IMG/VR virus record: IMGVR_UViG_3300042256_000013 | Coordinates: 128,001 to 192,000 of that record | Reading direction: 5' to 3' (one strand) | Origin: a virus | Taxonomy: Duplodnaviria; Heunggongvirae; Uroviricota; Caudoviricetes | Length of the DNA: 64,000 bases | In this document: positions 54 through 63,693 of the stretch, one piece after another | Layout: every line of letters begins with the position of its first letter | Numbering within the stretch: the stretch's first letter is position 1 | The notes under the pieces: model-generated | The model's input: the letters and a program-made list of their open reading frames with translations, nothing else | What the model was told of the DNA's origin: nothing | Databases searched by the model: none | Made by a program: the position numbers and the translations under genes

Positions 54-524
54 TTAGTGAAATTTAACCGCACCATTATTGGATGCCAGTTCAAACATTG
101 TTTTCCATTCGTAGTACTTTGAAAGATTATATCCTTCTAGATATAAACAGGCATGTTCTTCATAATCATTGAAGTCCTTAGCAAGTTTAGTACTACACAT
201 TGTACCGATTACCCCTTCACAATCAGAGTAATTAATAAGTTCATAGAATGGATAATAACCATTTTCATCAAGTGGTAAACGAGTGGCTAACTGACGTAAC
301 GTACCACGCCATAAATTATATCCACCATAAGAACCTGCCCTCATATGCTCACTGTTTTCATAACTGTAAAAATATGAGCCATCAACATCTATGTGCTGGT
401 AGCAATCTTGATCGTTGTGAATATAGAAATATGTCCAGTCATGATCATATGCTTCATCTACATCCATGTTTTCGCGTTGTGATTCTTTCTTAAGATTACT
501 ATACGCGGTAATATCTAAACCCAT
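54..524 (-). CDS. hypothetical phage protein (MGLDI-type N-terminus)
   Basis: 156-aa ORF with AAGG RBS-like sequence upstream; no recognisable catalytic motif. Confidence 0.75.
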   Translation of the reverse strand: MGLDITAYSNLKKESQRENMDVDEAYDHDWTYFYIHNDQDCYQHIDVDGSYFYSYENSEHMRAGSYGGYNLWRGTLRQLATRLPLDENGYYPFYELINYSDCEGVIGTMCSTKLAKDFNDYEEHACLYLEGYNLSKYYEWKTMFELASNNGAVKFH

Positions 525-587
525 TTGAAACTTTACCTTATGTGATTTACCATTCTTCGAATGTCAAAGAATTATCGTCAGTACTAC

Positions 588-956
588 TCATTTAGTACCT
601 TCAATTATCATTTTAATCGTGCTTACAAAATGTATATCCCAGCACCATAGTTCTTTATGTGGAACTTCATAGTACTCAATAACATCTTCCATTACACCTT
701 CGTCGTTTTCTTTCTGTACAATACGAGCTAAAGTTTTAAGCTGTACTGTTTTAGATTCAGTTAATGTACATTCGAGATTAGGTACATTTTTCAATGTACT
801 GAAATAAAAATTAGCCATTCTGTAATCAAAAAACCGATGCTTAAATGATTCTTGTTTATCGATCATAATCGTATTATCGAATCTATAACTGAAATTTGAA
901 CCTGATACTTCAGGAGCTATAGATTGAAGGAGATCAATAATTTCTTTAGTTTGCAT
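588..956 (-). CDS. hypothetical protein
   Basis: 122-aa ORF, GGAG RBS at ~964-967. Confidence 0.75.
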   Translation of the reverse strand: MQTKEIIDLLQSIAPEVSGSNFSYRFDNTIMIDKQESFKHRFFDYRMANFYFSTLKNVPNLECTLTESKTVQLKTLARIVQKENDEGVMEDVIEYYEVPHKELWCWDIHFVSTIKMIIEGTK

Positions 957-1103
957 TGCCTAACTCCGTTAGTCAAGAATTGAGTTCAGTACTCTCTATC
1001 GTTCGTACTATGAACTCAATTCAGATTTTATATGTTTAACACAATTTATACTGACGAGATTTGGGGAGGACATTTTCATCCCCCCGCAGGGGGGTGAAGT
1101 CGT

Positions 1104-1600
1104 AAAAAAAGTACACAATCGTGTACTGAATTTAATCTGACGATGATAGTCGTCGGAATCTGTCGAATTGTGAATTTCTCTGAATTTTAGATACAACTTC
1201 ATTGTACTTTTTCTGGAGAACGAAAGCGGGTTGCTCGGTTTCTCTCTATCACAGTCATATGCAACGGTCGCAGGTTTAAACATTCCTGCACTCAGTACTG
1301 AATCTATTCGACCAAATCAGTACTTGCCATTTCTGGCTCCCTTAGCGTATTGGTAAGTGACCTTATATGTCTATCTAGGAAGTGTCTCATATGCTTATCA
1401 CACTTCTTTATTGAGCCGCATTGCCGTGATTCATAGTCTTACATCGCTTTGGATTGAATGCTATTACTCTAACGGGTTTCTTTTGCTCATCGTACTGATT
1501 GAACTACTCATCTGCCATCTACATTTTCGATAGGATCAGGTGTATTCACTCGTCAAGGACTATCCTTGTCAATCAGAGTTGTATCTAAAAATATTATTGT
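1104..1600 (-). ncRNA. candidate large structured non-coding RNA (~500 nt)
   Basis: No credible ORF. Promoter at 1607-1635. Perfect 14-bp closing helix 1185-1198/1577-1590 with many nested helices, a GAAA tetraloop on the minus strand, and a hairpin plus U7 at 1104-1127. Confidence 0.6.
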
Positions 1601-1606
1601 ACCATC

Positions 1607-1635
1607 ATTATACCATATAAATTCGGTTCGATCCA
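1607..1635 (-). promoter_or_regulatory. promoter TGGATC-N17-TATAAT (variant of the TGRAAY class)
   Basis: Minus strand TGGATC gaaccgaatttatatgg TATAAT, directly downstream of a terminator. Confidence 0.65.
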
Positions 1636-60774: not shown

Positions 60775-60809
60775 TGATGTTCTCCTTCAAATCTGTATAG
60801 ATATATTTA

Positions 60810-62459
60810 TTAGCGATTATAGGATACCAGTATAGATAATGGCTGATATAACTGACCATCGTCTAAAGTTTCACTAATAACTTGTGCAGTACGGTCTTCA
60901 AATTTTGCAATAACATCGATCATACGAACGATAAGCAATGTAGCACTCACCAAGTCATCTTTGCATCCTAATTTTGCTTTATAGATACCATCATCCATAC
61001 CAGCTTTAATGAAGTCGTTCAACTGACGGTGCAATTCAGCACTGGCAACTTCCATCCTAAAGGTTTCCATTAGTTTTTGCATGTGGAAACATGCAGTCTT
61101 TTTAGTAGCTTTAGTAGTAGTCATGCCTTTACGAATACGACCAGTTCTTGTTCTCTTAGGTTCGTTAATTAAAGTACCTGGGAAACGTTCAATACCAAGA
61201 TTTGTAATCTCCAGTACTGCTGCTTCACCGATTGTATTATTTTCTACTGACCAGAATAGATGATCCTCAATTTGTCGAGCACCTTTTTCTTCCATTCTGG
61301 CAGCAACTTCACTTAAAATTCTATGTAATAGCTTAACCTGATTAGGAATGCTAGTACTGTTATTCTTCCATTCTGCAACTTGACGTAATGTAGGAAGTTC
61401 ATATACTTGAATAGCAGCATCATCACCACCAGTACCACCTGAAGGGTCAAGAGATACAGCATATGTACATCCGTATTCAATATCTTTAAACCAACGAACT
61501 TCATCAGTTCGTTTAATTGGGTCACGAACGAATCTATTTTTTATTTCAGTTAGCTTAATACCACTGATCAATGTTTCTTGATATGTTACGAATTCACAAT
61601 TATATTCACGACGAAAACGTGATGAACCTAATTTATATTCTTCTTTATCAGCCCACTCTTGATTACGATCAGGGTGCTTATCCCATGTTACTTTAATTCC
61701 ACGGAATCCATTTATACCTGGACCGTCATCATCAATCTCTGTTACATTACCATCTTCATCTTCAAAGGCATGAATTTGTGATTCGAACCATAATGATGCG
61801 AATTGATCATATTCAGTGTTTGGAGTACTGGAGATTATACATCCACCACCTGAACCTGCTAAGGTTGGTGATACCGCAGCCCAAAAGTTTGATTGATATG
61901 ATTCTTGAACGAATGCAAATTCATCAAGATATAGTAAATCTACGGTTAGACCACGAGCAGCTTTTGGAGTTGTTGCACGAGCAATGATACGTGATTTGTT
62001 TTCGAACTTAATAGTAAGTTCGTTATACTTCGTAACACCATCACGGATATGGTCAGGACACATTTCATATGCGAACTTAATACGATCCATGATTTCTTGT
62101 GCTGCTGATTGTACGTTACCCATCAACAGAATTGTTTTTGTTGGATTGAACATAGCATACCATAAAAGATATGCTGCTACAACCGTTGTTTTACCCATCT
62201 GACGAGCAGTGAGCATAATGTTGTTTTTGTTTTCGATGAAGTTACGTATCATTTCCTTTTGGTATTCAAAAGGTTTAAAAAGTGCTTCACCACCCTTTGT
62301 TTGAATATAAACAAAGTTTTCAATAAAAAATAGAGGATCTACAGTACAACGTTGTAGATCATCAAGCATTTGTTGTGTATATACTACTTGCGTTTTTGGT
62401 TTTTTCGTGACGGAATAATCTTCGTCATCATTAAAATTATCTAAGTCAAAATTAGACAT
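60810..62459 (-). CDS. 17: terminase large subunit (T4 gp17)
   Basis: YQ adenine-binding motif, [43 protein letters not shown]. Confidence 0.95.
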
Positions 62460-62460
62460 G

Positions 62461-63150
62461 TTAAGTTCCTCTTGTACATCCGTACTTCAACAAGAAGTCG
62501 GCGTTTCCAAGACTATTTAGCATTGTCAAATACCAATTTTGAGTTAGGTTCGGATTACAGTACCAAGGATATGTAGTTAATGTTCCTACTTTCTCTAATT
62601 CATGCTCATCAGGAGGTAAAAATGTGTTTAATATAACACATTTATTACTAGCAGGGGCAGTTTGTTCGAATACTTCTGCATTTTTCGGTCCCAAATATGG
62701 ATTATCATAAAAGGTAATATCGAATTTATTTCCTCGAAGTTCTACAATAGTACTACAAAATAAAACTTTAGATTTATTTTCAAATCGAATATATCGTTGA
62801 TTACTACTCGATACATAGTATAGTTTTTGATTGGTATCCCATTTTTGTAATACTTTTTGATATAAAAGATTAAAAATATTCTTTATATCACGAACCATTA
62901 ATGTTCCTGGTGTATAAAACGCTATACTACTTCCAGGATAAAACATCGATACCCATAATGCATATATACAGCTTGCAGTTGTTAGTCCACACCCTCTATG
63001 ACCCAATATATTTTTAATTTTATCATTTTCTAAGTCCAAAAACTTAGTCATCATATCATACTGGAATCCTCTGAACTCTAAATCGAGATAATTCATCATA
63101 AAATAGAATATATCATCTCTACAAAGTACGTATTCCCTAATGTTATTCAT
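62461..63150 (-). CDS. terminase-ATPase-like paralogue with degenerate Walker motifs
   Basis: [21 protein letters not shown]...F.P, I.FENKS, RG...D..FYDN, W..NP, F...Y.C collinear with the gp17 N-domain; no nuclease domain. Confidence 0.7.
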
Positions 63151-63192
63151 AATCTTCCTTAAAAAGTACTACCAAAGCAGTACTTTATTCAT

Positions 63193-63693
63193 TTATATCT
63201 GTTTTAACGTATACGTTACATCCATATAGGACTTAAAAGGCCCATATAGTGCTTCTGTATTGTTTCTTTCGTTATAAATGTCCACACTAAGGGTTAAACG
63301 TGGCAAATATGTTCCGTTTTCCCCTCTTACAAGCCACCAACCCGGATAAAAACGCTTTTTAGAGCGTTGACTCTTACGAAAAGAGCCTATTCCAAGTGGG
63401 TCATCATTCTGAATGTCAATAATGTTATCAGTATCATTAATAGGATACTCACCCAAGGCTTTTGATGTATTAGTACTATCAGTTACTTCGATTTCAGCAT
63501 AAGTGAATTCTTCACCTAATGCGTCTTCTAGTTCTTTAATGTTACTAAACTTCAAAGAACCTTCTGAAGAAAAGAACTCAATACCAGTACGTTCAGTAGT
63601 ACCTTCATCGTAATTCACTAAAATACCCATCTTTTCACCAGTATTGGTTTCTACAATGAATGAGTACTCAGTTAGAATTTTTAAAATAGCCAT
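63193..63693 (-). CDS. hypothetical protein
   Basis: 166 aa, KS..Y.GWW...YGPFK motif. Confidence 0.7.
   Translation of the reverse strand: MAILKILTEYSFIVETNTGEKMGILVNYDEGTTERTGIEFFSSEGSLKFSNIKELEDALGEEFTYAEIEVTDSTNTSKALGEYPINDTDNIIDIQNDDPLGIGSFRKSQRSKKRFYPGWWLVRGENGTYLPRLTLSVDIYNERNNTEALYGPFKSYMDVTYTLKQI

Follow-up and report, generated by a model that had tools for sequence, protein, structure and literature searches.

AGTACT is a highly iterated palindrome in the DNA of Rak2-like jumbo phages and of a group of small Enterobacteriaceae proviruses

Background

The highly iterated palindrome HIP1 (GCGATCGC) of cyanobacteria, together with alternate HIPs, is a short word that reportedly occurs once per few hundred base pairs, far more often than base composition and codon usage allow, and its association with methyltransferases is said to have been proposed by Elhai in 2015. 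Phages are textbook cases of palindrome avoidance. In this work we examined the hexamer AGTACT in a stretch of 64,000 nucleotides, hereafter the window, which comprises bases 128,001-192,000 of a 371,104-bp phage genome (IMG/VR record IMGVR_UViG_3300042256_000013) and in which a first-pass annotation had described AGTACT as an over-represented, HIP1-like iterated motif. The genome is assigned to the Rak2/GAP32/121Q group of jumbo myoviruses, and the deposited phages closest to it are Erwinia phage Kaldavass and Xanthomonas phage XbC2, each 86% identical to it across the 86% of its length that can be aligned.

The same hexamer is at the centre of the SlmA-binding sequence of Escherichia coli, GTGAGTACTCAC, a 12-bp palindrome that is bound by a dimeric helix-turn-helix protein and at which SlmA requires G1, T2, and, at position 3, a purine (Tonthat et al. 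2011, PMC3020112). It is also the target of the ScaI restriction-modification system. Full-text searches of the literature found no paper linking AGTACT to Rak2-like phages.

Results and Discussion

The excess of AGTACT belongs to the DNA

Exact counting gave 150 copies of AGTACT in the window, about one per 427 bp, where 21.4 are expected from base composition, and this 7.0-fold excess makes it the top over-represented hexamer of the window. The earlier figures of ~140 sites, 20-25 expected, and an excess of about 6-fold were close to these values. Genome-wide, 1087 copies were counted against 125 expected from composition (8.7-fold), and AGTACT is the sole hexamer palindrome in more than 2-fold excess. 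The avoidance of 6-bp palindromes by phages, which the first-pass annotation had taken as background, holds here too, as 27 of the 64 possible hexamer palindromes do not occur in the window.

One explanation of these numbers is that AGTACT is a by-product, either of codon and dipeptide usage or of the purge of other palindromes, which would leave it as a safe word. The purge is real, since most G+C-rich palindromes are gone (GCGC is found 0 times where 385 are expected in the genome) in addition to the missing hexamers. Genes were called with a simple longest-ORF (open reading frame) picker that uses ATG starts only, so that boundaries are approximate, giving 600 genes genome-wide and 79 in the window, and synonymous codons were permuted within each gene, which preserves proteins, all dipeptides, and per-gene codon usage. 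In the coding DNA of the window there are 143 sites as against 35.2 ± 5.6 after permutation, with a maximum of 50 in 200 runs, and in the coding DNA of the genome there are 940 as against 245 ± 13 (z = 53); a plain codon shuffle gave 136. The first-pass annotation had held that the excess could be discarded if it disappeared under such a shuffle or was explained by a bias in shorter words, and it did neither; the over-representation rises with word length from GTAC (2.1-fold) through AGTAC (3.9-fold) to the full hexamer in the window, and in the genome from GTAC (2.4-fold) and AGTAC (about 4-fold) through AGTACT to the extended octamer CAGTACTG (42-fold) and TCAGTACTGA (95-fold). Among the 16 NGTACN words in the window the runner-up to AGTACT has 62 copies. 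A maximal-order Markov model expects 137 AGTACT in the window, and this expectation is so high because the 5-mers AGTAC and GTACT are raised by AGTACT itself. One-off variants, which had been thought frequent as well, are overall only mildly so, TGTACT (2.5-fold) and AGTACC (3.8-fold) being up and AGTACA (1.2-fold) and GGTACT (1.4-fold) barely raised.

The excess of AGTACT belongs to the DNA and not to the proteins. The sites in the window genes are spread over the three reading frames as 74, 19, and 50, in line with what had been claimed, and in the genome each of the three frames is enriched 3.5-4.2-fold; the sites at 113, 4783, and 5045 do lie in minus-strand ORFs and those at 1294 and 1319 outside called genes. 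No single amino-acid pair can be the cause of an enrichment that is present in three frames and in intergenic DNA, and the site density is higher in non-coding DNA (4.2 per kb) than in coding DNA (2.8 per kb). Furthermore, the sites are actively conserved, the purged words would supply far fewer positions than the ~960 extra sites, and the Pseudomonas phage MIJ3, described below as an outgroup, shares the avoidance of many palindromes but has fewer AGTACT than expected. Both the by-product and the codon explanation are thus effectively refuted and we give them next to no credence.

The preferred word is longer than six bases and reshapes proteins

Alignment of the flanks of all 1087 sites gave a fuller preferred word, TTnCAGTACTGnAA, in which G beside the core is disfavoured. 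Immediately outside the core the frequency of C is 0.39 and that of G is 0.07, with mirror symmetry between the two sides, and at -3 and -4 T is raised and C lowered. The octamer CAGTACTG is found 170 times in the genome where 4.0 are expected and 15 times in the window where composition predicts 0.68; its density in this genome is 0.46 per kb as against ~0.013 per kb in an enterobacterial chromosome. Dimeric proteins that bind DNA at specific sequences usually leave graded, symmetric footprints like this one of ~12 bp and, judging by the shape of the motif, we infer that such a protein may bind here.

The AGTACT word reshapes protein sequences and codon choice. Ser-Thr dipeptides number 766 where 516 are expected (the reverse pair, Thr-Ser, numbers 509), and 61% of them are spelled AGT-ACT as against 15% expected. 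Val-Leu dipeptides are also raised (790 as against 597 expected), and Tyr is encoded by TAC in 83% of AG_T contexts and in 28% elsewhere. The reversed codon pair ACT-AGT, which is the SpeI site, is avoided (14 as against 76).

Sites turn over in the Rak2-like clade while their density is held

Six complete genomes from three genera were compared, namely, this phage, Kaldavass, XbC2, GAP32, 121Q, and RaK2. All six carry 903-1114 AGTACT sites (7.6-9.2-fold) and are 34-85-fold enriched in CAGTACTG, and the hosts of these Rak2-like carriers range from Klebsiella to Erwinia. The closest relative of the terminase outside the group is that of the Pseudomonas phages MIJ3/PA5oct (42% identity), and this similarity makes it a usable outgroup anchor. 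MIJ3 has 20 copies of AGTACT where 98 are expected and is therefore depleted (0.2-fold). Since the six Rak2-like genomes are enriched and MIJ3 is depleted, the trait is a shared derived character of the Rak2-like clade.

For site evolution, Kaldavass, XbC2, and GAP32 were projected onto this genome. The proportion of aligned sites that are intact in Kaldavass and XbC2 is 73%, as against ~37% expected at a per-base conservation of 0.85, and third-codon positions within sites are conserved at 0.89 as against 0.74 expected from the same codons elsewhere. Rates of gain and loss were obtained by two-taxon parsimony with this genome as the outgroup to the Kaldavass/XbC2 pair and with all other hexamer palindromes pooled as controls. 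Losses of sites numbered 145 where background rates predict 368 (controls, 727 as against 948), and gains, in which a one-off precursor acquires the site-forming base, numbered 41 where 34.8 are expected (controls, 1059 as against 1666). Calibrated on the controls, loss occurs at ~0.5 times and gain at ~1.8 times the rate of the control palindromes, and both ratios fit a calculated scaled bias of ~1.3, which is comparable to weak selection or biased conversion. Of the selection on sites that had been proposed earlier, a directional force on the DNA itself is supported by the third-position conservation and by these rates. Parsimony assigned 58 gains and 48 losses to the branch of this phage and 29/25 and 32/25 to the other two, so that gains and losses are roughly in balance on each branch. 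Site positions turn over while density is held, which argues against position-specific roles for most sites, and the rates of loss and gain indicate a weak, pervasive directional force.

A second group of carriers and the background of the host

The IMG/VR database was scanned for loci with two CAGTACTG within 30 bp, and at least 80 loci were found. The loci listed fall into two distinct sets, in which about 28 have AGTACT at 8-23-fold and the rest are at ~1-6-fold, which is chance-like, a few very short loci excepted; the enriched loci among these matches are Rak2-like fragments and proviruses of 31-35 kb that form a superfamily. In the five complete ones, AGTACT occurs 126-140 times each (12.6-14-fold) and CAGTACTG is enriched 86-134-fold. 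Their genes include those for a serine integrase, a lambda-type terminase, and an HK97-type head, and they are located in the chromosomes of Leclercia, Phytobacter, and Enterobacter, the host assignment being from four genome records. Their flanks match those of the jumbo phages, with C at 0.45-0.59 and G at 0.06-0.08 at -1 and T at 0.42-0.46 at -3 and -4, and their sites are 73-82% conserved as against 40-52% for other hexamers. The host chromosomes are at chance for CAGTACTG, with 67 copies in 5 Mb as against 52 of the control word, so that the provirus stands out as a dense island. When the 73 provirus protein families were compared with the jumbo phages by BLAST, phmmer, and profiles, the only matches were a lysozyme and a mobile AP2-like protein of ~200 amino acids. 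By this measure of shared genes, the small proviruses are unrelated to the jumbo phages and are an independent second carrier clade.

These data bear on the possibility that the word is driven by mutation, that is, that a sequence-specific mismatch repair or biased gene conversion turns near-matches into AGTACT with no benefit to the phage being needed. Vsr, through which CCWGG has become more frequent in E. coli, is a precedent. As such a drive would have it, each site is under a weak and uniform force, this force acts in all frames and in non-coding DNA, and site density peaks where protein constraint is probably lowest, namely, in non-coding DNA and the early genes at 0-30 kb. On the other side, no Vsr-family gene was found in four Rak2-like genomes, no precursor is depleted (AGTATT is at 1.03-fold and AATACT at 1.14-fold), and all six core positions as well as the flanks are informative, unlike what is expected of one-mismatch repair. 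A host enzyme would also enrich the host chromosome, which is at chance, and this background excludes a host-wide mutational bias; if the enzyme were the phage's own, the small proviruses should have it too, and no such common enzyme is detectable. We therefore regard a mutational drive as unlikely.

Placement along the genome

Spacing and periodicity had been proposed as a check on the sites. The spacing is near-exponential (coefficient of variation, 0.95) and no periodicity was found apart from one array phased at 10 bp. Regular spacing was rejected since the variance-to-mean ratio varies among the genomes (0.6-1.5), some of which are slightly under-dispersed. The largest site-free gap in the genome is 2196 bp, where random placement of 1087 exponential gaps with a mean of 342 bp predicts a maximum of ~2400 bp, so that this genome has no exclusion zones. 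Density is about two times higher in the first 30 kb and the last 20 kb of the record, where there are small early-type genes and long intergenic stretches. There is no link to gene starts or stops as the density is flat from -200 to +200, save for a dip at the ribosome-binding site, and a role in promoters or terminators was rejected on this flat profile and because the sites have no fixed position relative to gene ends. In the early region AGTACT forms part of the -10 element, as AG-TACTAT, at just 3 of ~27 strong sigma-70-like sites.

The phased array is a perfect tandem repeat, (AGTACTGGAT) x 11.7, at 19,058-19,174 of the genome, outside the window, and its twelve sites follow one another at one helical turn. 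The gene-free strand-switch region of ~2 kb around it is conserved, and a sigma-70-like promoter lies just downstream of the array. In the relatives the homologous spot has one to three sites and, therefore, the array is a recent slippage expansion. As a separate observation, the XbC2 record begins and ends exactly at the point homologous to this array.

A physical property of the DNA, with the stiff-flexible-stiff GTAC/TA step being selected for bending, packaging, or ejection and no sequence-specific reader, would account for the genome-wide spread at near-random spacing, for the slight under-dispersion, and for the existence of the phased array. The specificity is too sharp for this, since TGTACA is at only about 1.5-fold and CGTACG and GGTACC are absent, and helical periodicity is not seen beyond the single array. 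In addition, the flank preference is identical out to -4 in the siphovirus-like prophages of ~33 kb and in the 371-kb myovirus, the capsids of which are very different. This explanation is very unlikely.

Methylases and the comparison with HIP1

In three descriptive features AGTACT matches HIP1, and to that extent the likeness drawn by the first-pass annotation is apt: it is a short palindrome found once per few hundred base pairs far above what composition and codons allow, it is present in all frames and between genes, and it is more conserved than its surroundings. Unlike HIP1, it is a different and A+T-rich word, its carriers are phages and not cellular genomes (the host chromosome not being enriched), and it recurs in two unrelated phage groups. 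It also fails the association with a methylase, in that AGTACT carriers have no cognate methyltransferase in common whereas HIP1 contains the methylated CGATCG and GATC.

The genome encodes three DNA methylases, an N4-methylcytosine (m4C) type, a cytosine-C5 type, and a small Dam-family enzyme. The m4C-type enzyme, P0001, has an SPPY motif and M.PvuII as its best solved relative, and M.ScaI, too, belongs to the m4C enzymes. P0001 occurs only in the Mimasvirus branch, and since the family (PF01555) is absent from 121Q and RaK2, both of which are fully enriched in AGTACT, P0001 was rejected as the cause. The C5 enzyme, P0002, was present in all 5 genomes checked (XbC2 not among them) and absent from MIJ3. 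It resembles DNMT3 over its full length, its target-recognition region is very short, which is consistent with the CpG methylation reported for RaK2 DNA (PMC3622015), and AGTACT has no CpG; P0002 was therefore rejected as the cognate enzyme. The small Dam-family enzyme (PF05869, with an NPPY motif) was found in all 4 Rak2-like genomes tested (this genome, 121Q, RaK2, and GAP32) and not in MIJ3, and, being only ~32% identical to its homologues in Stx-converting and T1-like phages, it may differ from them in specificity. In the small proviruses none of the families PF01555, PF00145, PF02086, and PF05869 was detected. A ScaI-type nuclease (PF09569) gave no match in five genomes, an absence that is weakly shown as the control genomes were silent too; a HinP1I-type nuclease (R-HINP1I) gave no match and its control only one below the cut-off, so that this absence is also weakly shown; and MT-A70 gave no match with its control also silent.

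Thus the search for a cognate methyltransferase, which had been suggested as a check, turned up no methylase family common to all AGTACT carriers among the families searched. The enrichment is independent of recognisable methylases, and from the gene content the proposal that the sites are a self-mark for a phage methyltransferase or repair system is not supported, with neither Vsr nor nucleases of the ScaI or HinP1I type matched in the searches above. The broader idea that a cognate methyltransferase, either of the Dam family or, in Mimasvirus, the m4C enzyme, marks AGTACT for protection, repair, or replication control draws on the distribution of the Dam-family gene, on its distance from its homologues, and on the kinship of P0001. 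It is weakened by the missing m4C enzyme in 121Q and RaK2, by the DNMT3-like nature of the C5 enzyme, and by the small proviruses, which have the same word and none of the four families, and methylation by itself gives the sites no reason to multiply. We consider it quite unlikely, whether by way of the Dam-family enzyme or of a methylase that escaped the searches. The likeness to the ScaI system is that the hexamer is the same and that the Mimasvirus branch has an m4C-type methylase. In contrast to that system, no ScaI-type nuclease was matched (with the silent controls noted above), the methylase is absent from half the clade, and restriction targets are normally avoided, as AGTACT is in the Pseudomonas outgroup, and not multiplied.

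AGTACT as a possible recognition word

The reading that we favour, tentatively, is that AGTACT acts in a density-dependent way as a recognition word for a DNA-binding factor that is symmetric, probably a homodimer, and more likely encoded by the host. AGTACT would be the core of the highly iterated palindrome TTnCAGTACTGnAA, a symmetric word of 8-12 bp, kept throughout the clade by a weak force on every site and acting on double-stranded DNA, and the benefit would depend on the density of the word in phage DNA and not on single positions. We infer three things here, a protein that reads the word, its encoding by the host, and the gain to the phage. A factor supplied by the host (order Enterobacterales) is more likely than one supplied by the phage because the proviruses and the jumbo phages share the word and the host order and have no plausible reader gene in common. 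Binding sites for a DNA-handling protein, as the first-pass annotation also suggested, would fit the symmetric graded motif.

By analogy, AGTACT may be likened to Chi (GCTGGTGG), to the DNA uptake sequences (DUS/USS), and to the FtsK orienting polar sequences (KOPS), in which many dispersed weak copies, by density and not by position, flag one class of DNA for a DNA-processing machine. Those words are asymmetric, work in one orientation, and enrich the cell's own chromosome, whereas AGTACT is palindromic and directionless and marks phage DNA only. No orientation bias was seen, the half-words CAGTAC and GTACTG numbering 647 and 585 on one strand in a genome with 87% of its genes on one strand, and the word is a perfect palindrome.

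Two candidate readers were tried and rejected. SlmA belongs to the host group of these phages and its site has the same AGTACT centre. The phage word prefers C and avoids G (0.07) beside the core and is without the GT at -3/-2, and there are 0 full SlmA sites (GTRAGYRCTYAC) here, with 0-1 in four further carriers; SlmA was rejected as the reader since the flanks are unfit and full sites are lacking. The other candidate is the family of the AP2-like protein, of which this genome has two paralogues. They have no Pfam match and no visible HNH motif, and PHROGs labels them 'HNH endonuclease' (phrog_953). The family is widespread (1500 phage records), patchy among relatives, and looks mobile. It was rejected as the reader because of this mobility, because it is in only 3 of the 6 jumbo genomes, and because KIL2 and NDO71, two phages that carry six copies of it each, are without any CAGTACTG.

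Several points weigh against a recognition word. No reader protein has been identified and binding is deduced from the shape of the motif only, and the one known enterobacterial protein with an AGTACT-centred site, SlmA, does not fit. A weak force per site is equally expected from biased repair or gene conversion. The expectations for gain and loss are based on parsimony and calibrated only on other palindromes, and the gene calls come from a crude ORF picker. The comparative sample is two lineages, as the six jumbo genomes represent one evolutionary event and the proviruses a second. Finally, most other phages of the same hosts are without the word (Klebsiella phage NDO71 is an example) and, therefore, a host factor alone does not force enrichment.

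A bolder form of the recognition-word reading, which we hold to be doubtful, is that a dimeric DNA-binding protein of the Enterobacterales, or a defence or DNA-processing machine, reads TTnCAGTACTGnAA and that at least two unrelated phage lineages, each on its own, have filled their genomes with the word at ~3-4 copies per kb, whether to make use of this reader, to saturate it, or to evade it. If this were true, the word would be an orientation-free, phage-side counterpart of Chi or of the uptake sequences.

Features of the window and other purged words

The coordinates are collected in Table 1. The genes of the window are almost wholly on the minus strand and include those for a T4-type large terminase, both topoisomerase II subunits, ribonucleotide reductase, a DnaB-like helicase, and structural proteins.

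Table 1. Positions of AGTACT sites, extended words, and related genes. Positions are those of the window unless marked as genome.
Feature	Position	Strand	Remarks
AGTACT copies, n=150	113..63668		143 within called genes, 7 between genes or across gene ends
AGTACT start positions	113, 189, 580, 671, 988, 1294, 1319, 2071 ... 63165, 63179, 63472, 63663		exact count
Example site	113..118		in minus-strand ORF 54-524
Site pair 1294 and 1319	1294..1324		no gene call overlaps; gene-free stretch 957-1683, candidate structured RNA
Example site within TCAGTACTGA	4783..4788		in small minus-strand ORF 4774-4944
Example site within CAGTACTG	5045..5050		in minus-strand ORF 5002-5538
Extended octamer CAGTACTG, n=15	starts 1293, 4683, 4782, 5044, 14436, 16910, 18920, 25345		span 1293..61219
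Extended octamer CAGTACTG, remaining starts	27202, 27571, 32970, 37676, 52747, 53772, 61212		
TCAGTACTGA, 4 of the 15 CAGTACTG	starts 1292, 4682, 4781, 32969		
Longest site-free gap in the window	49940..51744		1811 bp between sites 49934 and 51745; within random placement
T4-type large terminase gene	60810-62459	minus	
C5 DNA methylase P0002, 294 amino acids	genome 103.6-104.5 kb	minus	outside window; end-to-end alignment with animal DNMT3A/3B catalytic domains
Two paralogous AP2-like proteins, ~200 amino acids	genome 120,191-120,817 and 281,651-282,271		outside window; AP2-like DNA-binding signature

Among the purged words, GCGC is found 0 times in the window where 65 are expected, as it is in the whole genome, and it is absent from the five other Rak2-like genomes and from 4 of the 5 small proviruses; in MIJ3 it is at 1.5-fold. 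An origin of GTAC from GCGC by deamination of methyl-CpG was rejected, as 385 expected GCGC stand against ~1700 extra GTAC and the sites are protected from loss. GATATC, the EcoRV site, is nearly absent only in the Mimasvirus branch (3-9 copies as against ~121 expected), the same branch that carries the m4C methylase, and is at chance in 121Q (117) and RaK2 (162). Some non-palindromic words are purged in all six genomes, namely, GAGCCC/GGGCTC (0 copies), CTCCTC/GAGGAG (~0.01-fold), CAGCTC, and AGGACC, which suggests that Type IIS or other asymmetric targets, or else internal Shine-Dalgarno-like words, are avoided.

In the early region (genome 1-20,000) the -35 hexamer of promoters (TTGACA or TTGACT) is repeatedly found inside the stem-loop of the preceding terminator hairpin, and a repeat of ~60 bp with the hairpin CACCCTATAGGGTG occurs at least 7 times. 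In the 121Q record (NC_025447), about a dozen paralogous genes at 119-131 kb are annotated as RCC1-like 'chromosome condensation' proteins, all of them with a common upstream element of ~50 bp that is also present at 19.43 kb of the genome studied here.

Conclusions

What is new here is the contrast with the outgroup, the calibrated rates of gain and loss, the matching flank profile, and the measurement of the host background; in addition, the m4C and C5 enzymes, Vsr, nucleases of the ScaI type (with the silent controls noted above), SlmA, and the family of AP2-like proteins could be excluded. The Rak2-like clade avoids palindromes more than most phages, yet it keeps about a thousand AGTACT and bends its proteins to fit them. 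In metagenomes these phages are sharply marked by the word, and digestion with ScaI or RsaI would be a quick test of modification. The same word with the same flanks in a second, unrelated prophage family makes a shared reader likely, and the small prophages offer a genetically tractable system in which to test this. The reader, if found, could reveal a new way of telling phage DNA from host DNA and could give experimental access to what iterated palindromes such as HIP1 do.

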